The notes under the pieces are model-generated. The model searched no databases. It saw only the letters and a program-made list of their open reading frames with translations, and was not told the origin of the DNA. Made by a program: the position numbers and the translations under genes. From an uncultured Bacteroidales bacterium (GTDB lineage: Bacteria > Bacteroidota > Bacteroidia > Bacteroidales > FEN-979), in contig CAIQUS010000175.1 in assembly GCA_903875045.1 (NCBI GenBank), positions 10,409 to 74,408 on the forward strand: a stretch of DNA of 64,000 nt, given 5' to 3'. Shown here piece after piece: positions 1,066 to 62,002 of this stretch. The stretch's first letter is position 1, and each line of letters starts with the position of its first letter.

Positions 1066-1133
1066 AGTGTTAATTAGTTAATATGATGATGTGATATTGT
1101 GATAATGTGATGATTTGAGCCTGCGTTGTTTTC

Positions 1134-32276: not shown

Positions 32277-32306
32277 AAGACACTCCCCTGCGCTTTGAGG
32301 AGAAAG

Positions 32307-32444
32307 CACCTCACCCAACCCTCTCCTCAACGAGAGGGCTCCCCCCTTCTCCTTGAGGAGAAGGGGCCGGGGGTTGAGGTGCATTGTTCAGAAGGGGCCG
32401 GGGGTTGAGGTGCTTTTCTCAGCAGGGGCCGGGAGTTGAGGTGA
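32307..32444. repeat. composite GC-rich element (family F1) ending in 3 tandem 31-bp units
   Basis: cacctcacccaaccctctcctcaacgagaggg, then the hairpin ccccttctcc-ttga-ggagaagggg (32343-32366). Next come three copies of a(a)ggggccggg(g/a)gttgaggtg at 32361, 32392 and 32424 (31-bp period). The element fills most of the only large gap in the che cluster. Confidence 0.8.
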
Positions 32445-32480
32445 AGTGGTAAAACAGAAGTGTGACGAGGTAAGAATAAA

Positions 32481-48868: not shown

Positions 48869-49687
48869 ATGAAAACAATTATTATTTCAATCACTTTAAT
48901 GCTTTTCAACATGATATCAGTATTTGCACAAGATGCCGAAGGATGTGTTGATCATCCGCTATTTAACAGAATGCCGAATTATACAATAAGAGAATGTGCT
49001 AAAAACTTTGGTATTACTGATCTGGTTATGGCTGATGGCAATTCAAAAACTATTGAAGGTTACAAAACCACGGTTACTTATGATTTTAATACAGAAGGCG
49101 GAAAACAAGCATATTCTTTTTATCAAGTTGTAAAGAACTACGAAAACGCCCTTGCCAAATATGGTGTGAAAAGAATTTATTTGGCTTCACAATATGCAAC
49201 TCTATTTTGCAAATCAGGAGGGAAATCTATTTGGATTGGTATTGAAGCTGCTTCAGATGTTGCAGAATCATATACGCTTACCATTATGGAAATTGAAGAG
49301 ATGAAACAAGATATTCAAGCATCTGCAATACTTGACGGGTTAAACAAAGATGGTTTTATAGCGCTGGATATACTTTTCGAAACAGGAAAATCTGTAATAC
49401 AAAAAGAGTCTCTACCAATCATTGACCAGATCTATGAAATGTTGAAAGGGGCTCCAAACATGAAAATATCAATTGAAGGTCATACGGATAATGTTGGTGA
49501 TGCTGCCAGTAACAAAAAACTTAGTAACGACAGGGCAAAATCCGTTGTGGATGTTCTCATTGCAAAGGGTATCGACAAATCAAGATTGTCGTCAATTGGC
49601 TGGGGCCAGGAAAAACCAGTTGCCGATAACAGAACTGATGAAGGCAGAGCCAAAAACAGACGTGTGGAAATTGTAAAGAAATCATAA
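48869..49687 (+). CDS. OmpA-family protein
   Basis: Signal peptide. C-terminal OmpA domain: FETGKSVIQKES...GHTDNVGDAASNKKLSNDRAKSVVDVL...RAKNRRVEIV. Confidence 0.85.
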   Translation: MKTIIISITLMLFNMISVFAQDAEGCVDHPLFNRMPNYTIRECAKNFGITDLVMADGNSKTIEGYKTTVTYDFNTEGGKQAYSFYQVVKNYENALAKYGVKRIYLASQYATLFCKSGGKSIWIGIEAASDVAESYTLTIMEIEEMKQDIQASAILDGLNKDGFIALDILFETGKSVIQKESLPIIDQIYEMLKGAPNMKISIEGHTDNVGDAASNKKLSNDRAKSVVDVLIAKGIDKSRLSSIGWGQEKPVADNRTDEGRAKNRRVEIVKKS

Positions 49688-49698
49688 ACGTTGATCAT

Positions 49699-49762
49699 CA
49701 ATCCCAAATCGTAAATCGTAAATCGTAAATCCCAAATCGTAAATCGTAAATCCCAAATCCCC
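49699..49762. repeat. 7-bp tandem array (family F2)
   Basis: The minus-strand reading is GGG GATTTGG GATTTAC GATTTAC GATTTGG GATTTAC GATTTAC GATTTAC GATTTGG GATTG. It starts 12 nt after the OmpA-family stop and ends on the base before the hglS ATG (49763). Confidence 0.9.
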
Positions 49763-50569
49763 ATGTCCCACCACACAATCTTCGACCACCTCTGGGCCGA
49801 CTACTGCCACCAGAATCCTTCCACAAAAAAGGTTTACGATCTGTTTATTGGTGAAGGCGAAACAGTCATCAACGACCATATTGCCATTCGGACATTCCGG
49901 CATCCGGCCATCGGAGTGGATGGTCTATCGCGGATCTTTCTGAAAAACGGTTATGAATACCGGGGTGACTACCATTTCGAAACAAAAAAATTGTATGCCA
50001 AACACTTTGAACACAAAACCGACCAGGAGGCTCCGCGTGTGTTTATCAGTGAATTGCTAACCGGGGAATTCAGTCCTTTTTTACAGCATACAGTTGGCAA
50101 ATGGATCTCGCAAATCCCGGTAACCATGTATGATTCAGATGATCTGATCTTTGCCGGGAATATTTCAGGTAAACCTTCATTTGAAGTGTATGAAAAGTTA
50201 CGGACTGAATCGGAATACGCGGCCTGGCTGTATGTGAATGGTTTTTGTGCCAACCATTTTACAGTCAGTGTAAACCGCTTGAATAAATTGGATTCCGTCC
50301 GGAAAGTCAACGAATTTCTGAAATTGCATGGGTTTCAGCTTAACGATACCGGCGGGGAAATCCAGGGAACCCCTGAAGAACTCCTTGAGCAATCAAGCAT
50401 ACGGGCAGGAATGGTGAATTTTGATTTTATCGAAGGAACATTTGAAATTCCGGGATGCTACTATGAATTTGCAAAGCGATACCCCGACACCAATGGCAAA
50501 TTGTATAGCGGTTTTATTGCAAAATCGGCCGATAAAATATTCGAATCCACGAATTTTTATAAAAAGTGA
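49763..50569 (+). CDS. hglS: DUF1338 / 2-oxoadipate dioxygenase-decarboxylase (HglS-like)
   Basis: 268 aa. The N-terminal pattern IFDHLWADYCHQNPSTKKVYDLF...VINDHIAIRTF is typical of DUF1338 (VOC-fold). Size and the C-terminal FIAKSADKIFEST also fit the family. Confidence 0.7.
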   Translation: MSHHTIFDHLWADYCHQNPSTKKVYDLFIGEGETVINDHIAIRTFRHPAIGVDGLSRIFLKNGYEYRGDYHFETKKLYAKHFEHKTDQEAPRVFISELLTGEFSPFLQHTVGKWISQIPVTMYDSDDLIFAGNISGKPSFEVYEKLRTESEYAAWLYVNGFCANHFTVSVNRLNKLDSVRKVNEFLKLHGFQLNDTGGEIQGTPEELLEQSSIRAGMVNFDFIEGTFEIPGCYYEFAKRYPDTNGKLYSGFIAKSADKIFESTNFYKK

Positions 50570-52065
50570 CCAATCCTTTTACATCAATTTTCGGATTTGT
50601 ACTGTTTATGGTGGGAATTTCCTGTTCCGATGGCGGTTCAGGACAGGGACACGAAAAAAAATCCATACCAAAACCGGGTGTGGTCCATGAAAAAATAGTG
50701 TGTGCAGAGAGGCCAGGCAGATCGTATGCCTTGTATCTGCCGGAACCGGCCCCACCTCAAACAAGTGAGGCATCCCCGCCGGGTTCTGCTCAAAGAGGCC
50801 AGGACCAGCCATCTCCCCCACCTCACCAACGGAGTCGGAATTCAGGCAATCAGCTTTATCCTGTTTTGATTGTTTTTGATCCGCATGGCGACGGGATGTT
50901 TCCGCTCAAATTGTATCAGAATCTGGCTGAAAAATATGGATTTATCATGCTGGGGTCGAATGATTCCAAAAACGGGCTGCCGGCAGAAGAAGTAAATAGC
51001 ATTGCAGATGCCTTGATACATGAAGCTCGTACTGTTTATCCTGTGGACACAAACCGCATTTATCTTCTCGGGTTTTCAGGAGGTGCGCGTGTTGCAGCCA
51101 TGGCAGCGCTTTATCAGGTTCAGGTGAAAGGGATCATTGGTTGCGGTGCCGGGTTTGGTAACACTGAACAGCCAATCAAATACAAATTTGATTACTTCGG
51201 TATTGCCGGAACTGCAGATTTCAACATGCATGAAATGCTGCAGTTGGATGATGCTTTAACCAGGGCAGGTTTTCGCCATTTCATCACTACCTTCCCCGGG
51301 ATACATGCCTGGCCCCCCGTCGCGGTGATGGAGGATGGTTTTATCTGGATCACCCTCAATGCAATGAAAGATGGGATGGTAAAAAAAGATGATTCCTTTA
51401 TTTCCGGTGTGAATACCTGGTTTGAGAAACGCTTTGAGACGTTGGTCAAAAATAACGAACTCATCGGGGCCGCAAACATTTGCAGGGAGGCAGTCTCTTT
51501 CCTCGAAGGCTTGAAACCTGTAGATTATTTCAATGGTGAACTTACCAGACTTGAAAAACAACCAGCCTACCTTGCGCAGCTTGCCTTGCGTGAAAGCGTT
51601 ATGAAGAGTGAAGAAGAAGAAAAACAGGAACTGATGCAGGCCTTGCAGGCCAAAGACCTGGCCTGGTGGACCAAAAGAATTTCGAATTTCAAATCTCGAG
51701 TTTCAAAAAATGAATTAATAAACAGCAAGATTAACCCCGAAGATACGCTGAAAAACAGGAGATTGCTTTCTTTCTTAAGCCTTTACTGTTATATGAATGC
51801 CAATGCAGCACTGGCCCGGCAGGACGAAAACGCAGCAATAAAAATTATCGCTATATATGAACTTGTTGATCCGGTAAACCCCGAACCCAATTACATGCGT
51901 GCGGTTTTGCTGGCCCGGCGGTCGGACAATGAAGCGGCTTTAACCCAGCTCAGCATGTCCGTTTCAAAAGGGTTTACGGATAAAGCACGTTTGAACGCAC
52001 AACCTGAATTCCGCCAACTGAACAGCTCAACCTCCTGGGATGACTTGATGAAAAGTATAAAATAA
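50566..52065 (+). CDS. lipoprotein with alpha/beta-hydrolase-like N-domain and helical-repeat C-domain
   Basis: A GTG start overlaps the hglS stop (GTGA). Lipobox FMVGISC. Esterase-like blocks YALYLP...VLIVFDPHGDG...IYLLGFSGGARVA (GxSxG). Contains an in-frame Pro-rich GC-rich segment at 50740-50853. Confidence 0.6.
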   Translation: MTNPFTSIFGFVLFMVGISCSDGGSGQGHEKKSIPKPGVVHEKIVCAERPGRSYALYLPEPAPPQTSEASPPGSAQRGQDQPSPPPHQRSRNSGNQLYPVLIVFDPHGDGMFPLKLYQNLAEKYGFIMLGSNDSKNGLPAEEVNSIADALIHEARTVYPVDTNRIYLLGFSGGARVAAMAALYQVQVKGIIGCGAGFGNTEQPIKYKFDYFGIAGTADFNMHEMLQLDDALTRAGFRHFITTFPGIHAWPPVAVMEDGFIWITLNAMKDGMVKKDDSFISGVNTWFEKRFETLVKNNELIGAANICREAVSFLEGLKPVDYFNGELTRLEKQPAYLAQLALRESVMKSEEEEKQELMQALQAKDLAWWTKRISNFKSRVSKNELINSKINPEDTLKNRRLLSFLSLYCYMNANAALARQDENAAIKIIAIYELVDPVNPEPNYMRAVLLARRSDNEAALTQLSMSVSKGFTDKARLNAQPEFRQLNSSTSWDDLMKSIK

Positions 52066-55000
52066 TGGATAACAAACAGTTTCAGCTCAAAATAGCAGGT
52101 TTGCAAACTGCATTCGAAGGTGATATTTATTCGGATGATACCCACCGGCTGCTTTATGCAACCGATGCATCGGCCTACCGGGAAATCCCTTTAGGGGTCG
52201 CACGACCAAAAAATGCCGGCGATATCAGGCAACTTATCCGGTTTGCCAATGAAACAAAGGTTCCGCTTATTCCGCGTGCTGCCGGTACTTCACTGGCCGG
52301 CCAGGTAGTTGGTTCCGGACTGGTGGTGGATGTGTCGCGCTACATGACGCAAATCCTGGAGATCAATGCTGCAGAACACTGGGTACGGGTGCAACCGGGC
52401 GTAATCCTCGACGAACTGAATAAAGTTGTTGAAAAACAGGGACTTTTCTTCGGCCCCGAAACCAGCACATCCAGCCGCTGTATGATGGGCGGCATGACAG
52501 GTAACAACTCATGCGGAGCCCACTCTATCCTTTATGGCAGTACCCGTGATCATGTGATTTCAGTCAAAGGATTGCTAAGCGATGGTTCTGAAGTGGAATT
52601 CAGTGAATTAACCCCGGATGAATTCAGGAATAAATGTTCCGGGGATGCACTTGAAAACAAAATATACCGTCAGATCAGCGAAATACTCTCCGACCCTGAA
52701 ACACAGGAAAACATCCGGAAAGAGTACCCCGATCCCTCTATTCACCGGCGCAACACAGGCTACGCTTTGGATCTTCTTTTAAACACAGCACCTTTTCGTC
52801 CCGGGGTGGAATTTTCCAATTTCCAATTTCCAATTTCCAATTTCGAAACGAACCCTTCGCCTGTCCACCCGCCCACCCGCCCACTTGTCCACCCCTTCAA
52901 CTTCTGCAAACTCATCGTCGGCAGCGAAGGTACCCTCATCTTCATGACCGAGATCAAGTTGAACCTGGTTCCTTTGCCACCGAAGGAGAAAGCGTTGATT
53001 TGTGTGCATTGCCATACCATTGCAGAATCTTTGAAAGCAAACCTGATTGCCCTTAAATATGGTCCCGGTTCTGTAGAATTGATGGATAAGGCAATCATGG
53101 ACTGCACACGCGACAACATCACGCAGCGGCAGAACCGGTTTTTCATCGAAGGTGACCCGGGTGCCATTCTCATCATTGAGTTTGCCCGTGAAACACGGGA
53201 AGAAATATTGGATATTTACACTCGTCTCGAGGCTGAAATGCGTTCTGCCGGACTTGGATATCATTTCCCGATCGTTTTTCCACCCGACGTAAAAAAGGTA
53301 TGGGACCTGCGGAAAGCCGGGCTCGGAGTGCTTTCAAACTATCCGGGCGACCGGAAACCCGTTCCTGTTACGGAAGATACTGCAGTTTCCCCGGCTGTTC
53401 TTCCTGATTATATTGAGGAGTTCAACCAGATGCTTGTCCGTCTCGGGCTTGATTGTGTTTACTACGCCCACGTTGGTTCCGGGGAATTGCATCTTCGTCC
53501 CGTGCTCAACCTCAAGGATCCCGGGGATGTTGAACTTTTTCATACTGTCGCACTTGAAACGGCGAAATTGGTGAAGAAGTACAACGGATCCCTGTCAGGA
53601 GAACATGGCGATGGCCGTTTACGTGGTGAATTCATTCCCCTGATGCTGGGGGAAAAAATCTATAACCTGTTTAAAAGTATCAAGGAAGTTTGGGACCCGA
53701 ACCATATTTTCAATCCGAACAAGATCGTTGATACCCCGAAAATGAATACAAATCTGCGGTTCAAGCCCGGAATGCCTGTGCGTGACATTCCGACCGTATT
53801 TGACTTTTCGGGAAGTCATGGGATTCTTCGCGCAGCAGAACAGTGCAATGGTTCGGGCGACTGCCGCAACACAGTCATCACCGGTCGGTATATGTGTCCG
53901 TCGTACATGGCTGTGAAAGATGAAAACACCACAACACGTGCACGGGCAAACTTGCTCAGGGAGTTTCTAACCAACTCACCAAAATTGAATCCATTTGATC
54001 ATCAGGAGATCTATGATGTGATGGATTTATGCTTATCCTGTAAAGCCTGTAAATCGGAATGCCCTTCGAACGTTGATGTTGCCAAACTAAAAGCCGAATT
54101 TCTCCAACACTGGTATGATGCACATGGAATTTCACTGCGTTCGCGGCTGATCGCCAACATTACACGGGTAAATCAACTTGGAAGCTTCGCTCCTTCCCTT
54201 TTCAATTTCTTTCTGAAAAACCGTCTCTTTTCCGGGATCACAAAAAATATTCTTGGCTTTGCACCTGACAGGAATATCCCGTTACTCTATGCCACAACGC
54301 TCCGCAGCTGGGCGGCTAAAAACCTGCAGCGAGGCAGGGACAGTACCAAATCAGACGCTGACAGACCAACCGGTCGTACCATCTATTTATTTGCCGATGA
54401 ATTCACAAATTTCAATGATGTTGAGATTGGCATCAAGGCCATCAAACTGTTAAATGCCTTCGGTTACCACGTGATTATCCCCGATCATGCTGAAAGCGGT
54501 CGCACTTATCTGTCGAAAGGGCTTATCAGGAAAGCAAAACAACTGGCCGTTGAAAATGTAAATAAATTAAAGGACCTGATCTCCGCTGAAACGCCCTTGA
54601 TCGGTATTGAACCCTCTGCCATCCTCACCTTCCGCGACGAATATCCCGAACTGGTCGATACCTCGCTGAAAGAAACCGCTGTGAATTTGGCGAAAAATGC
54701 ATTGATGTTTGATGAGTTTTTGGTGAAGATCACCTCCGGTGAAGGGAAAGAACACTTTCAAACCCCCTCCGGACTTTTTACAGATAAATCCCGGATTATC
54801 AAGCTGCACGGACATTGCCATCAAAAAGCACTGGCATCTGTCGGATCAACAAAACAGATGCTGATGATACCTGCCAATTATAAGGTGGAGGAGATCAAAT
54901 CGGGTTGCTGCGGCATGGCAGGCTCGTTTGGTTATGAGGAGGAGCACTATGAAGTATCGATGAAAGTCGGGGAACTCGTGCTGTTTCCTGAAGTCAGGAA

Positions 55001-55121
55001 AGCGGCACAGGATGTGATCATCGCAGCCCCGGGAACTTCATGCCGCCACCAGATCATGGATGGCACAGGCAGGAAAGCGTTGCATCCGATTGAGGTGCTC
55101 TTTGATGCGTTGGGGAGATAG
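52065..55121 (+). CDS. ydiJ: FAD-linked oxidase fused to Fe-S/CCG domains (YdiJ-like, candidate D-2-hydroxyglutarate dehydrogenase)
   Basis: The ATG overlaps the upstream stop (TAATG). FAD_binding_4 block IPRAAGTSLAGQ. GlcD-like C-domain GSLSGEHGDGRLR. Ferredoxin-type CLSCKACKSECP plus CNGSGDCRN. C-terminal CCG-type CCGMAGSFG. Confidence 0.8.
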   Translation: MDNKQFQLKIAGLQTAFEGDIYSDDTHRLLYATDASAYREIPLGVARPKNAGDIRQLIRFANETKVPLIPRAAGTSLAGQVVGSGLVVDVSRYMTQILEINAAEHWVRVQPGVILDELNKVVEKQGLFFGPETSTSSRCMMGGMTGNNSCGAHSILYGSTRDHVISVKGLLSDGSEVEFSELTPDEFRNKCSGDALENKIYRQISEILSDPETQENIRKEYPDPSIHRRNTGYALDLLLNTAPFRPGVEFSNFQFPISNFETNPSPVHPPTRPLVHPFNFCKLIVGSEGTLIFMTEIKLNLVPLPPKEKALICVHCHTIAESLKANLIALKYGPGSVELMDKAIMDCTRDNITQRQNRFFIEGDPGAILIIEFARETREEILDIYTRLEAEMRSAGLGYHFPIVFPPDVKKVWDLRKAGLGVLSNYPGDRKPVPVTEDTAVSPAVLPDYIEEFNQMLVRLGLDCVYYAHVGSGELHLRPVLNLKDPGDVELFHTVALETAKLVKKYNGSLSGEHGDGRLRGEFIPLMLGEKIYNLFKSIKEVWDPNHIFNPNKIVDTPKMNTNLRFKPGMPVRDIPTVFDFSGSHGILRAAEQCNGSGDCRNTVITGRYMCPSYMAVKDENTTTRARANLLREFLTNSPKLNPFDHQEIYDVMDLCLSCKACKSECPSNVDVAKLKAEFLQHWYDAHGISLRSRLIANITRVNQLGSFAPSLFNFFLKNRLFSGITKNILGFAPDRNIPLLYATTLRSWAAKNLQRGRDSTKSDADRPTGRTIYLFADEFTNFNDVEIGIKAIKLLNAFGYHVIIPDHAESGRTYLSKGLIRKAKQLAVENVNKLKDLISAETPLIGIEPSAILTFRDEYPELVDTSLKETAVNLAKNALMFDEFLVKITSGEGKEHFQTPSGLFTDKSRIIKLHGHCHQKALASVGSTKQMLMIPANYKVEEIKSGCCGMAGSFGYEEEHYEVSMKVGELVLFPEVRKAAQDVIIAAPGTSCRHQIMDGTGRKALHPIEVLFDALGR
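52809..52895. repeat. 7-bp array plus inverted 8-bp array embedded in frame inside the ydiJ-like CDS
   Basis: Four perfect CCAATTT units at 52816-52843. Then ctgtccac ccgcccac ccgcccac ttgtccac (52861-52892), the reverse complement of the GTGGRCRR units found at 55122-55171. Confidence 0.85.
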
Positions 55122-55171
55122 CGGGCAGGTGGACAGGTGGGCAGGTTGGCAAGTGGGCAAGTGACAGGTGG
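55122..55171. repeat. 8-bp tandem array (family F3)
   Basis: cgggcag GTGGACAG GTGGGCAG GTTGGCAA GTGGGCAA GTGACAG GTGG begins on the base after the TAG stop at 55119-55121. Confidence 0.9.
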
Positions 55172-55215
55172 ATGAATCATTTTGTATCTTTGCAAAAGAT
55201 AAAACTTACCAAAGG

Positions 55216-57615
55216 GTGATAAGATCTTTTTTTTCTATACCGTGCTTTCTCTGGATTTTTAGTATTTGTGGGATTTTTGTTTCAACAAATGCGTCAGGGC
55301 AGCTCACAGTTGTGCAGGGAGCCGCTTTGGGAATGACTCCTTTGCAACTCGTGCAAAACTACCTGGTTGGAGCCGGAATTACGGTGAGCAATGTCACATT
55401 TAACGGGACTTCCGAAAGCATCACCTCCAATCAGGTTGGTACTTTTGCCACATCTGGTGGCGCAACAACCCAACTGGGACTTGCAGGTGGTATATTGATG
55501 ACTTCGGGCAAGGCAAGCATTGCCATCGGGCCAAATAATTCGGGAAGCGCCGGGTATCAGGTTGGCGGACCTGGTGATCCTGACCTCAACGTGTTGTCGG
55601 GATCCAACACCTTCGATAAAGCAGTGATCGAATTTGATTTCATTCCTCAGTTTGACACCGTGCGGTTTCGATATGTATTCGGATCTGATGAATTCTTTGA
55701 ATATTGTAACCAGTTCAATGATGCATTTGGCTTCTTCCTTAGCGGGCCGGGGATCTCTGGTACTTTTTCCAATAACAGTGTGAACATCGCCCGTATGCCG
55801 GGTTCGCTGAATAACTATGTAACGATCAACAATATTTGTGCAAATACATTGTCACGCTGGTCAAATCCATCAGGCGGTACATATTACCAATACGATGGCC
55901 TTACTTACGTTTACACAGCCTGGTACGTTGTACAGCCATGCAATACCTACCATATCAAGCTGGCTATTGGTGATGCTGTTGATAAACAGTATGATTCGGG
56001 GGTGTTTCTCGAACAGAACAGTTTCAGCAGTCCCGGGGTGAATATGATCAACAACAGTACCATTCCGCTTCTTGGAAACAAAGCCGTTGAAGGTTGCAAC
56101 GATGTGGCCATTAATTTCAGACTGGAGGCCATCCTTACCTACCCGTATACCATTCATTACTCGGTTGGGGGAACGGCAGTGAATGGCATTGACTACACTC
56201 AGATAAACGATTACGTAACCTTTCCGCCGGGTGAAGACAGTGTGAACGTGATGATCCATCCCATTCCCGATAACCTGCCGGAAGGTCAGAAGACGGTAAT
56301 TCTCAGCCTGAACCAGATTTCATGTGATGGTCAGGTTAAAAGAGATACAGTATATATCGACGACTATATCCCGATGACCATTGAACCAAATCATGATACC
56401 ACTATGTGTTACGGAGGCAGTATCGTCCTGAAAGCCAATACCACCGGTGGAATCATGCCACTTGCCTACCATTGGAATTTCCCGGGAAACGACAGCATTG
56501 CATTCCTCACTCCACCGGTTGGCAACAATGTTTATACGATAAAAGTTACAGATGTTTGTACTCATGCGGTATCTGATACGGCACTGGTTTTGGTTCATCC
56601 GGTTCCTGTGGCCAATGCCGGAACAAATGTGACCATTGCCAACGGAACCAGCACCACCCTGCATGGCACGGCAAGCGGCGGATATGGGAATTACAGCTTT
56701 TCATGGACATCAAATCCTCCGGGTTTCACTTCATCCCTTGCTGAACCATCAACAGGGAATATGACCCACTCAATTATTTATTTACTTACAGTCACTGACC
56801 TTTCCAGTGGTTGTGTGAGTTTATCATCCCAGGTGATTGTATCGGTTGAAGGTGGCATCCTTTCTGTCAACCCTGTTTCAATACCCGACGCGGTGTGCCT
56901 CGGTGACACGGCACATCTTTTTGCCTTGTCCGGAGGCGGTTCAGGTATCTATTCTTACCAGTGGAGTTCAACTCCTGCCGGATTTACTTCCACAGAATCA
57001 AATCCATTCGTAACTCCAACAGAAACAACGTCCTACAGCATTGTTGTCAACGATGGGTTTAACCAATTGAACAGAAGTACCAATGTAGTCGTTTATCCGC
57101 TGCCACAAATCCATCTTGGCCCGGTTGACTCCAGCGTTTGTATTTATGACATTGTGAACCTTGATGCAGGCAACCAGGGTTCAACCTACAAATGGTCGGA
57201 CGGTTCAACCAGCCGCTATCTTAGCGCTTCCACCACAGGAATCGGTTACGACGTTCAAACCTATTCCGTTACAGTAACCAATCAAAACGGATGCGCCAAC
57301 GAGGCAACTATCCATATCGTTTTCACTTTTGACGATTGCGTTGGTGTTGAGGAACATTCTGCAAATGCAAACTTTTCGGTGTTTCCAAATCCGGCACACG
57401 GAACCTTCAGGCTTCTGGTCAGGACTCCGGTTGTTCAAGCGACCGTAGAATTGATTAACATGTTTGGAACAACCATTTTAAGCGGTTCCCTCATTCGATC
57501 AGCAAATCCTGTGATGGACCACGTGTTTGATATTTCAGGTATTCCAGCGGGAATGTATATCCTGTTTGTAAGAAGTGATGCGTTTTCCGGCTCGGTTAAG
57601 CTGGTCGTTCAGTAA
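55216..57615 (+). CDS. T9SS-secreted choice-of-anchor-L domain protein with Ig-like repeats
   Basis: Signal peptide (V)IRSFFSIPCFLWIFSICGIFVSTNASGQ. Choice-of-anchor-L pattern TPLQLVQNYLVGAGITVSNVTFNG...GPGDPDL...AVIEFDFIP...RFRYVFGSDEFFEY...NDAFGFFLSGPGI. C-terminus FSVFPNPAHGTFRL...VKLVVQ is a T9SS sorting domain. There is no ATG, so GTG 55216 is preferred to GTG 55168, which lies inside the repeat. Confidence 0.8.
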   Translation: MIRSFFSIPCFLWIFSICGIFVSTNASGQLTVVQGAALGMTPLQLVQNYLVGAGITVSNVTFNGTSESITSNQVGTFATSGGATTQLGLAGGILMTSGKASIAIGPNNSGSAGYQVGGPGDPDLNVLSGSNTFDKAVIEFDFIPQFDTVRFRYVFGSDEFFEYCNQFNDAFGFFLSGPGISGTFSNNSVNIARMPGSLNNYVTINNICANTLSRWSNPSGGTYYQYDGLTYVYTAWYVVQPCNTYHIKLAIGDAVDKQYDSGVFLEQNSFSSPGVNMINNSTIPLLGNKAVEGCNDVAINFRLEAILTYPYTIHYSVGGTAVNGIDYTQINDYVTFPPGEDSVNVMIHPIPDNLPEGQKTVILSLNQISCDGQVKRDTVYIDDYIPMTIEPNHDTTMCYGGSIVLKANTTGGIMPLAYHWNFPGNDSIAFLTPPVGNNVYTIKVTDVCTHAVSDTALVLVHPVPVANAGTNVTIANGTSTTLHGTASGGYGNYSFSWTSNPPGFTSSLAEPSTGNMTHSIIYLLTVTDLSSGCVSLSSQVIVSVEGGILSVNPVSIPDAVCLGDTAHLFALSGGGSGIYSYQWSSTPAGFTSTESNPFVTPTETTSYSIVVNDGFNQLNRSTNVVVYPLPQIHLGPVDSSVCIYDIVNLDAGNQGSTYKWSDGSTSRYLSASTTGIGYDVQTYSVTVTNQNGCANEATIHIVFTFDDCVGVEEHSANANFSVFPNPAHGTFRLLVRTPVVQATVELINMFGTTILSGSLIRSANPVMDHVFDISGIPAGMYILFVRSDAFSGSVKLVVQ

Positions 57616-61959: not shown

Positions 61960-62002
61960 GGGGATTTACAATTTCAGATTTCAGATTTCAGATTTCAGAT
62001 TG
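61960..62002. repeat. 7-bp tandem array (family F2), opposite orientation to 49699-49762
   Basis: GGG GATTTAC AATTTCA GATTTCA GATTTCA GATTTCA GATTG begins on the base after the TGA stop (61957-61959). It lies between convergent genes. Confidence 0.9.

Follow-up and report, generated by a model that had tools for sequence, protein, structure and literature searches.

Composite arrays of heptamer and octamer repeats within a variable loop of a YdiJ-like oxidoreductase gene in an uncultured Bacteroidales lineage

The YdiJ-like gene and its repeat arrays

We analysed a 64-kb stretch of DNA (the window, meaning the whole of that stretch) in which a gene for a YdiJ-like FAD/Fe-S oxidoreductase carries short tandem repeats within its coding sequence. 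Profile searches recovered the Pfam domains FAD_binding_4, FAD-oxidase_C and Fer4_17/Fer4_8 in the encoded protein, which has the full YdiJ-type domain architecture, including a 4Fe-4S dicluster and a GlpC-like C-terminus. The name is kept at ‘YdiJ-like’ because the NCBIfam YdiJ equivalog score was 615.6 bits, below the cut-off of 1350. Gene order (HGLS, hypothetical gene, YdiJ-like gene) was kept across relatives, and the adjacent HGLS gene (PF07063) supports a role in 2-hydroxyglutarate metabolism. Judged from its sequence, the enzyme is probably a D-2-hydroxyglutarate dehydrogenase in which an FAD-linked oxidase is fused to Fe-S and GlpC-like domains. The features of the window considered here are as follows.

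1079..1111, minus strand: intergenic octamer array, TAATGTGA x4.1 on the plus strand, reading TCACATTA along the flanking minus-strand genes
49706..49761, plus strand: intergenic heptamer array AAATCGT / AAATCCC, of the same array class, ending right at the HGLS start codon
50566-52065, plus strand: upstream hypothetical gene, directly before the YdiJ-like gene
51677..51704, plus strand: degenerate heptamer array GAATTTC / AATCTCG, in frame within the upstream hypothetical gene
52065..55121, plus strand: host gene, YdiJ-like FAD/Fe-S oxidoreductase, 1018 aa (Pfam, NCBIfam, synteny)
52797..52895, plus strand: repeat-derived loop (site 1), R245-P277, 33 aa, delimited from alignments of 120 proteins and 80 genome loci
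52809..52843, plus strand: heptamer array, a degenerate GGAATTT followed by (CCAATTT)x4; 35 nt, not a multiple of 3
52844..52860, plus strand: non-repeat spacer CGAAACGAACCCTTCGC, 17 nt
52861..52892, plus strand: C-rich octamer array CTGTCCAC, CCGCCCAC, CCGCCCAC, TTGTCCAC, 32 nt, consensus CYGYCCAC
55122..55171, plus strand: post-stop octamer array GTGGACAG / GTGGGCAG / GTTGGCAA ..., abutting the host stop codon and G-rich on the sense strand
61971..62001, plus strand: intergenic heptamer array (ATTTCAG)x4.4, of the same array class, between convergent genes

The four CCAATTT copies occupy 52816-22, 52823-29, 52830-36 and 52837-43, with the degenerate GGAATTT at 52809-15, and TRF scored 52813-52844 as period 7 with 4.6 copies and 100% matches. 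For the octamers, which comprise four units, TRF scored 52865-52884 as period 8 with 2.5 copies. The loop translates as RPGVEFSNFQFPISNFETNPSPVHPPTRPLVHP (aa 245-277) without stops inside the ORF 52065-55121, a loop-spanning peptide of the host protein includes ...FSNFQFPISNFETNPSPVHPPTR, and the repeat segment is free of stops in all six reading frames. Coordinates, TRF calls and the stop-free translation together confirm that 7-bp and 8-bp arrays lie in frame within the gene, as a preliminary description of this DNA had proposed. Each of the three parts (35, 17 and 32 nt) is singly out of frame, while their total of 84 nt is in frame; because 7 + 8 = 15 nt, paired heptamer and octamer changes are frame-neutral. 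Of perfect period-7 arrays spanning 21 nt or more, the 64-kb window has three and 100 dinucleotide shuffles none. A separate contig of 2,868 bp lends independent support to the repeat, as its encoded protein (P0001) is 100% identical over 931 aa, insert included.

An AlphaFold2 model places aa 248-273 in coil, at pLDDT below 50 (28-29 for aa 251-270), between confidently modelled helices, and a second variable loop (site 2, aa ~891-900) is likewise coil with pLDDT below 50. The loop is thus modelled as an unstructured, disordered coil in a low-confidence region, a prediction in keeping with the earlier suggestion of a tolerated loop, which would probably lie at the surface.

Most arrays in the window, and in the related loci L081, L082 and L083, lie at gene junctions, to which the in-gene array is the exception. 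The in-gene octamers are the reverse complement of the post-stop array, as already noticed, with 76% complementarity over 42 nt; the best stretch is 15 nt at 93%, the longest exact match is 10 nt, and the exact unit CTGTCCAC is common to both. Inversion between these two arrays, which had been raised as a possibility, is rejected because these stretches of identity are too short and the event would sever 740 conserved residues and destroy the gene. CCAATTT does not occur as an array elsewhere in the window, nor does the spacer have a second copy there, and the exact spacer with its junctions (TTTCGAAACGAACCCTTCGCCTG) had no match in one metagenome collection scanned. The nearest heptamer is GAATTTC at 51677-51704, ~1.1 kb upstream, which differs by one mismatch after rotation, followed by ATTTCAG at 61971-62001 with two mismatches. 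The likeness of the heptamers to intergenic arrays therefore holds loosely for the unit, since the CCAATTT array is unique in the window and its closest counterpart is intragenic, while membership of a shared array class stands (see the sharing test below). In the upstream gene, the corresponding WWxxxI...PEDTL loop is itself variable among relatives, with AATTACG (peptide NYELRIT) in L001 and L012 and SKFKDQG x4 in L083.

Loop expansion among homologs

We compared the loop across homologs of the window gene. About 60 more distant loci, 55-66% identical and spread over four or more annotated phyla (records labelled Bacteroidales, Neomarinimicrobiota, Chlorobiota and Melioribacteraceae), keep a constant stretch of 15-16 aa, L-x3-PF-(6 aa)-FNF, where the query has 43 aa. 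The query loop is 33 residues long vs an ancestral 6, a net gain of 27 aa or 81 bp, and the earlier expectation that distant homologs have a short loop only, making the segment extra, was borne out. Within the clade with at least ~68% identity, dozens of lineages carry arrays of 7- and 8-nt units at site 1 and site 2, and their content differs. Site-1 loops were expanded in 53 of 121 cases. A peptide period of 7 aa was seen in 21 loops, of 8 aa in 16 and of 9 aa in 2, and periods of 5, 6 or 10 aa in none. Overall, two or three loops of the enzyme hold differing arrays in many lineages. At site 2, relatives L001 and L089 carry GC-rich, truly palindromic elements that are not present in the window.

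Octamer arrays homologous to those of the query occur at the same site in L003 (CCGTTCAC x3.8), L009 and L089 (CAGCTTAC x5), which are 80-85% identical to the query and whose loops all finish ..V(H/Y)PFNF. Because the octamers are common to relatives at this distance, the composite at site 1 appears old and turning over in place. The comparisons indicate that only the CCAATTT array is specific to the window genome and that the octamer part is not. The preliminary description read the segment as intergenic-type repeat DNA inserted into the gene; the type was correctly recognised, in that the arrays are of the same class as intergenic ones, but a recent one-off insertion does not fit octamers common to L003, L009 and L089.

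Non-triplet units in frame within a gene raise the question of phase variation, in which the arrays would act as a contingency locus switching the enzyme on and off. The earlier remark that gain or loss of one 7- or 8-nt unit shifts the frame is correct arithmetically, and such arrays are slippage-prone in other bacteria according to the summaries of Mrazek 2007 in PMC4679880 and PMC4692102. No frameshifted copy was found, however, as the ORF was intact in all 120 listed homologs (119 full length, with P0001 truncated by its contig) and in 78 untruncated genome loci. Three assemblies of the P0059 locus that differ by 3-12 SNPs over 18 kb, a stretch with many arrays, showed no array indels, and none separated two assemblies of the P0038 locus. 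The arrays also have only 4-5 copies, and the host, part of a conserved operon, is a housekeeping gene of catabolism and not a surface or restriction-modification gene. We therefore consider a role as a contingency locus extremely improbable.

Array census, polarity and sharing between sites

We surveyed arrays in the window and in flanks of 3-10 kb around related loci. TRF on the window and 82 loci returned 48 arrays of period 7 and 23 of period 8, with at most 17 for any other period; at a lower score threshold and with duplicate assemblies removed, there were 74 period-7 and 37 period-8 arrays in 789 kb. Arrays of period 7 and period 8 abound in the clade, and those of other periods are scarce. 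The 74 heptamer arrays comprise 52 distinct units, on which ground a single conserved unit family is rejected, and TAACTGA and GGGNATC (consensus units from PMC4679880 and PMC4692102) have no counterpart among these 52.

Heptamers lay 5′ of the C-rich octamer strand in all 13 adjacent heptamer/octamer pairs, a count that is phylogenetically non-independent and that we estimate to represent ~10 independent cases. All six intergenic pairs with gene calls were co-oriented with their flanking genes. The arrays are thus polar heptamer-then-octamer composites, typical of gene boundaries in this uncultured Bacteroidales clade. Such consistent polarity, co-oriented with transcription, speaks for a function of the loop or of its DNA or RNA, whether as a selected disordered linker or docking segment, or as an internal regulatory site such as a protein-binding array or an unstructured, G-poor tract of mRNA. 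Intergenic composites directly upstream of start codons also favour this explanation, and heptamer arrays have been proposed as sites for post-transcriptional regulators (PMC4679880). Against it, loop contents are unrelated even between backbones at least 96% identical (P0038, P0045, P0056 and P0059), the repeat loop is absent from many clade members and from all distant homologs, and the post-stop array of the window is oppositely oriented. On balance, a selected function is quite unlikely.

Units were also shared between coding and intergenic arrays. In-CDS and intergenic arrays had units in common in 16.2% of within-locus pairs vs 4.3% of between-locus pairs (odds ratio 4.3, Fisher p = 2.6e-7), with sharing seen in L005, L014, L041, L081 and L088. 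In L082, site 1 and site 2, which are 2.1 kb apart, carry identical copies of a degenerate 28-nt array core, and related copies with 5 mismatches are intergenic in L083 and L086. Units therefore recur at several loci per genome, in CDS loops and between genes alike. For the window genome, the post-stop octamers and the one-mismatch heptamer 1.1 kb upstream weakly suggest copying from another locus.

These patterns bear on whether the arrays arose purely locally, by de novo slippage on the loop's own codons, such that any likeness to intergenic repeats reflects a shared mutational bias towards 7-8-nt units. The high diversity of units (52 among 74 heptamer arrays) is consistent with local origin, as are the inheritance of site-1 octamers among the query, L003, L009 and L089, the restriction of CCAATTT to this locus and the lack of spacer matches in the metagenome collection scanned. 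The last octamer also encodes V-H-P, in a reading continuous with the codons for the ancestral ..V/I-P-F, as seen on comparing L003 (GTTCACCCATTT) with L064 (ATTCCATTT). Against local origin stand the 28-nt core identical at the two L082 sites and its related intergenic copies, the units shared within genomes, among them between CDS and intergenic arrays, and the exact CTGTCCAC contained in both the in-gene and post-stop octamers. We regard a purely local origin as unlikely.

Transposition of a classical non-autonomous mobile element (MITE, RPE or REP-like) into the gene would fit a conserved gene that has gained a stop-free segment in frame, as happens with Rickettsia palindromic elements (RPEs), and the dispersed related composites in relatives. 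An 8-nt inverted pair, GGGGTGGA / TCCACCCC, flanks the composite in the minimum free energy structure. That structure is weak, however (-16.7 kcal/mol, z = -1.02), with 32 of 200 shuffles folding as well or better; the repeats are direct and not inverted, a cross-genome consensus is absent, and direct reading of the sequence revealed no TIR longer than 8 nt, no TSD and no longer inverted repeat bracketing the composite. No Rfam family was detected in 49000-56000 at E ≤ 1, and no copying mechanism, transposase, TIR or TSD was identified for these arrays. Hairpin, RPE and MITE readings are rejected as the fold of the element is not significant, and insertion of such a mobile element is very unlikely. 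The analogy with RPEs drawn in the preliminary description holds functionally, for tolerated in-frame repeat DNA, but not structurally, because the element is non-palindromic and so is not RPE- or MITE-like in structure.

Origin of the composite and comparison with known repeat systems

On this evidence, the segment is likely to combine non-triplet simple-sequence arrays (7-nt units, a spacer and C-rich 8-nt units) into a composite of a lineage-specific, gene-boundary type that occupies an unconstrained loop of the YdiJ-like protein. Replication slippage would expand, contract and homogenise such arrays, template switching or gene conversion would copy them from locus to locus, and selection on the gene would purge variants only where these disrupt the frame or create a stop codon. 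The peptide so produced would be neutral and disordered, would probably lie at the surface as a loop and would serve no function itself. Under this scenario, the site-1 composite would already have existed before relatives with ~85% backbone identity diverged, and a later replacement specific to the window lineage would have given rise to the CCAATTT array.

A more far-reaching proposal is that the composites are a distinct, undescribed class of polar dispersed element, spread by a dedicated copying mechanism and probably acting in intergenic mRNA leaders. Spill-over into genes would then create protein sequence at the three YdiJ sites, in the neighbour-gene loop and possibly in L014, where a linker joins large- and small-subunit domains of the aconitase family, and 7 + 8 = 15 would let the arrays co-vary in frame. 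We consider this possible but rather doubtful.

With arrays of gene-boundary type occupying an unconstrained loop, the locus would be a clear natural case in bacteria of non-coding-type repeat DNA turned into translated protein sequence, and would involve non-triplet units, a type usually kept out of coding regions. The recurrence of arrays at the same loops in dozens of lineages provides a natural map of where a conserved FAD/Fe-S enzyme tolerates insertions, as well as a system for measuring rates of array birth, homogenisation and replacement. Consistent polarity and within-genome unit sharing point to an undescribed copying process and perhaps an intergenic function. In practical terms, the arrays inflate variation in protein length, yield spurious ORFs through their six-frame openness, and can mislead gene callers and protein alignments from MAGs.

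Long simple sequence repeats have 5-11-nt units with heptamers dominant, as far as Mrazek 2007 is summarised in PMC4679880 and PMC4692102, and according to both papers they are under-represented within coding sequence. TAACTGA repeats occur in Beggiatoaceae, cyanobacteria and some Bacteroidetes (PMC4679880) and GGGNATC repeats in Xanthomonas and Nostoc (PMC4692102). The arrays described here resemble these repeats and the cyanobacterial STRR heptamers in being direct tandem repeats of 7-8 nt with low copy number, in lying at boundaries of co-directional genes, frequently right next to a start or stop codon, and in their sporadic, lineage-specific distribution. They differ in that the window arrays lie in frame inside a conserved enzyme CDS despite their non-triplet units, that units are diverse and do not follow one consensus, and that they form polar heptamer-then-octamer composites. 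The literature searched gave no description of such polar composites and, for heptamer or octamer arrays in Bacteroidetes, intergenic descriptions only and none in frame in proteins.

Contingency loci share with the window gene non-triplet tandem repeats in a CDS, where a one-unit change would shift the frame. They differ in that no frame-shifted alleles were seen here, the host is a housekeeping catabolic gene, and the long units (7-8 nt) are present at low copy number.

RPEs are palindromic, ~100-150 bp long and have a family consensus, and Ogata et al. in 2000 reportedly found them inserted in frame in protein-coding genes. The window element is like them in that intergenic-type repeat DNA would be translated as an extra, tolerated segment and the class occurs both between and within genes, but it consists of direct tandem arrays with no significant fold and no cross-genome consensus. 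RPEs have been reviewed in PMC2229807. As regards dispersal, which RPEs show across many genes and intergenic sites, the window has only the related post-stop octamers and a one-mismatch heptamer array in the neighbour gene, and in the flanks surveyed relatives have shared cores at several sites. The best reading is of an element that is RPE-like in behaviour, yet neither an RPE nor a MITE.

A further parallel is the RNase P RNA gene of heterocyst-forming cyanobacteria, inside which Vioque in 1997 is said to have described STRR heptamer arrays. There, too, heptamers of an intergenic class are tolerated inside a functional conserved gene, at a variable, dispensable position. The RNA host lacks a frame constraint, whereas in the YdiJ-like gene the arrays are subject to constraints on both frame and stops and would become protein.

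Composite repeat and its host protein

Re-reading positions 52500-53200 directly gave the parts of the in-gene composite (52797-52895) exactly as the preliminary description had them:

52809-15, + strand: degenerate heptamer GGAATTT
52816-52843, + strand: four perfect CCAATTT units
52844-60, + strand: 17-nt spacer CGAAACGAACCCTTCGC
52861-92, + strand: four octamers, CTGTCCAC, CCGCCCAC, CCGCCCAC and TTGTCCAC

The tandem-repeat finder (TRF) reported the heptamers as a period-7 array of 4.6 copies with 100% matches, and the window contained three perfect arrays of period 7 spanning 21 nt or more, compared to none in 100 dinucleotide-preserving shuffles. As had been claimed, the composite translates without stops, as RPGVEFSNFQFPISNFETNPSPVHPPTRPLVHP, within a plus-strand ORF of 1018 aa (52065-55121). 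Its parts of 35, 17 and 32 nt are each singly out of frame and sum to 84 nt in frame. Because the segment is stop-free in six of six reading frames, two minus-strand ORFs (52760-53176 and 52779-53264; 138 and 161 aa) also cross it, which are probably spurious and not genes. A protein (P0001) encoded on a separate contig of 2,868 bp is 100% identical over 931 aa, insert included, and an assembly artefact is therefore unlikely.

The host protein has Pfam domains FAD_binding_4 (aa 42-179), FAD-oxidase_C (306-554) and a 4Fe-4S dicluster domain. The top NCBIfam model was D-2-hydroxyglutarate dehydrogenase YdiJ (615.6 bits, short of the 1350 required for an equivalog), and the C-terminus was GlpC-like in the same search. 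Gene order in relatives is conserved as HGLS (hydroxyglutarate synthase, PF07063), a hypothetical gene, the YdiJ-like gene and a T9SS-tailed protein; the first three, with a hypothetical protein of ~480-600 aa, recur clade-wide (window 49763-55121 and loci L081-L089 of relatives). This order fits a 2-hydroxyglutarate role, and the conserved trio suggests a module leading from 2-oxoadipate via 2-hydroxyglutarate to 2-oxoglutarate.

ORFs were aligned from 80 genome loci recovered via the family alignment. The ~60 that share 55-66% identity carry annotations as Bacteroidales, Neomarinimicrobiota, Chlorobiota and Melioribacteraceae; nearly all of them had a constant 15-16-aa stretch, L-x3-P-F-(6 aa)-F-N-F (e.g. 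LETDPFTGNGIPFNLS), compared to 43 aa in the window's protein (+27 aa, 81 bp), in agreement with the earlier remark that YdiJ-type proteins have only a short loop there. Alignment with solved GlcD- and LctD-type structures covers aa 39-181 and resumes at aa 276, so that the composite lies where an excursion specific to the YdiJ family ends. An AlphaFold2 model based on 88 homologs (mean pLDDT 81.6) predicted coil for aa 248-273 (pLDDT <50; 10-residue block means 29 and 28), flanked on both sides by confident helices.

Variable loops across the clade

Of the best 120 homologs (named members nearly all annotated as uncultured Bacteroidales or Bacteroidota MAGs), all but contig-truncated P0001 had 68-83% BLASTP identity and were 965-1123 aa long, with a basal length of 976-977 aa. 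Length differences clustered at three main sites:

Site 1, aa 245-277 of the window's protein: the composite
Site 2, about aa 891-900
Site 3, about aa 754-763 (window about 54324-54353): weaker, between the Fe-S and CCG-type halves

In dozens of lineages, sites 1 and 2 carried differing peptides of 7-aa or 8-aa period (MQNANSK-MQNAKSS...LPTYQLTN x3; IQNSKFK x2...HSLNHSFT; KSQVTSH x3; SSVLSPQ x4), a periodicity that marks 7-nt and 8-nt DNA units translated in all three frames. Periodic windows had period 7 in 21 loops, 8 in 16 and 9 in two, with none at 5, 6 or 10. The longest in-frame array seen, (CGGGACA)x30 (208 nt; L088 10730-10937), encodes the TRDAGHG peptide at site 1 of P0012. Four homologs (P0038, P0045, P0056 and P0059) had backbones at least 96% identical and radically different loop contents, while a lineage with the array-free 6-aa loop TGNGVP showed point substitutions only.

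Site 3 inserts reached ~60 aa in some relatives (homologs P0033, P0038 and P0045-P0060), with no obvious periodicity. A further CGGGACA x14 array (L088 5481-5576) lies ~5 kb upstream of the P0012 array inside a small called gene; this ORF is probably spurious and derived from the array. An in-frame heptamer hot spot also exists in the hypothetical gene that separates HGLS from the YdiJ-like gene (ORF 50566-52065), at the loop WWxxxI...PEDTL, which is occupied by RISNFKSRVSKNELINSKI in the window (51677-51704), SKFKDQG x4 in L083, and AATTACG arrays (peptide NYELRIT) in L001 (2614-2653) and L012 (2631-2662); AATTACG also occurs at site 1 of P0067, P0069, P0071 and P0073.

Gain or loss of one unit would shift the frame, as proposed, but no sign of such phase variation was seen. 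The ORF was intact in each of the homologs listed and wherever a locus was not truncated, and no array indels were found in a relative with three assemblies, which differ by 3-12 SNPs over 18 kb with many arrays, or in a second relative with two.

Intergenic arrays, probable copying and polarity

TRF detected 48 period-7 and 23 period-8 arrays in the window plus 82 loci, and at most 17 of any other period; with duplicate assemblies removed and the threshold lowered, there were 74 and 37 in 789 kb. The majority of these arrays lay at gene junctions. Pairs with a common unit (at most one mismatch, any rotation or strand) made up 16.2% of same-locus and 4.3% of different-locus pairs (odds ratio 4.3, p = 2.6e-7), and included CDS-loop and intergenic arrays in L005, L014, L041, L081 and L088. 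L082 carried one composite twice within the same gene, at sites 1 and 2, with an identical 28-nt degenerate-heptamer stretch (ATTAGGCATTGGCCATCAGGTATTAGGG) that has intergenic relatives in L083 and L086 (5 mismatches). This common degeneracy pattern implies inter-site copying rather than independent slippage, and speaks against the main rival reading, in which the arrays arose locally and de novo with no copying at all; we consider that reading improbable.

"Long simple sequence repeats" are known to favour heptamers (Mrazek 2007, through the summaries in PMC4679880 and PMC4692102). We think it fairly probable that a lineage-specific process would make and keep 7-8-nt arrays at gene boundaries, where slippage would drive growth, shrinkage and homogenisation, and that template switching or gene conversion would occasionally copy arrays into others or into sites free of constraint. 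For the few protein loops tolerant of any sequence, keeping the frame open and free of stops would be the sole filter, leaving a neutral, disordered loop.

Within the window, the in-gene to intergenic link is weaker than in relatives. Heptamers had been likened to intergenic arrays, and the nearest heptamer array, GAATTTC, 1.1 kb upstream and inside the neighbouring gene, does match CCAATTT with one mismatch after rotation, but no other CCAATTT array was found in the 64 kb. The proposed reverse-complement octamers were recovered directly after the YdiJ-like stop codon:

55122-55171: post-stop octamer array of GTGGACAG / GTGGGCAG / GTTGGCAA type

They match the in-gene octamers over 42 nt at 76% complementarity (best 15 nt at 93%), with CTGTCCAC as an exact common unit. 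Inversion between the two arrays, also proposed earlier, is implausible given so little shared identity, and would remove 740 conserved residues. For the T9SS gene downstream, the ORF finder chose GTG 55168 as the start, within the array; GTG ~55216 (signal-peptide-like MIRSFF...) seems more likely. The Bacteroidetes -7 promoter box has the consensus TAnnTTTG, and we take TATCTTTG (about 55185-55192) to resemble it, so the array may lie just upstream of a putative promoter. In L014 (356-472, ORF 1-969), an in-frame linker of 39 aa is made of (CAGTCCA)x12 and (ATCACGG)x4.4; judged by the translation, it connects what look like the C-terminus of an aconitase/IPM-isomerase large subunit and a LeuD-like small-subunit domain, and the array may have fused two neighbouring genes.

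When adjacent heptamer/octamer pairs were oriented by the C-rich octamer strand, heptamers were 5' in 13 of 13 (~10 independent cases by our estimate), and the window's element has the same architecture. The six intergenic pairs with gene calls lay between co-directional genes, in the orientation of those genes. At site 1, L003 carries (CCGTTCAC)x3.8, and L009 and L089 (P0002, 85.6% backbone identity) carry about 2.5 ATGCAAA units followed by (CAGCTTAC)x5; the last octamer runs into the conserved PFNF motif (GTTTACCCATTT in L089, GTCCACCCCTTC in the window). These same-site arrays indicate that the composite predates the splits between these lineages, with concerted evolution since, and that specificity to the window's lineage is limited to the CCAATTT heptamers.

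Comparison with known repeat systems

The suggested analogy to Rickettsia palindromic elements (RPEs) stood for functional behaviour and failed for structure: the defining palindrome is absent, with no significant fold (z = -1.02). Terminal inverted repeats were limited to an 8-nt GGGGTGGA / TCCACCCC pair, and neither a target-site duplication around the composite nor an Rfam match to it was found. A true RPE-like case is the CCCCTCCC...GGGAGGG hairpin element in frame at site 2 of relatives (L001 5581-5667; L089), with peptides such as PPPQPSPEGGRE and PLQGRGVGVG. GC-rich palindromic repeats of the same kind, of CCCTCTCC..GGAGAGGG / GGGGTTGAGGTG type (31-nt tandem unit x2.7), occur in intergenic window positions 32280-32450.

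No description of such in-frame array composites was found in the literature searched. The composite DNA belongs to the same known class of short-unit arrays as the cyanobacterial heptamer arrays (STRR) and the TAACTGA and GGGNATC types. STRR reportedly lie inside cyanobacterial rnpB, according to Vioque in 1997, and are the closest precedent for arrays in a functional gene, though the host there is an RNA gene. Unlike these types, the composite is in frame within a conserved enzyme and combines diverse units in a polar heptamer-then-octamer form.
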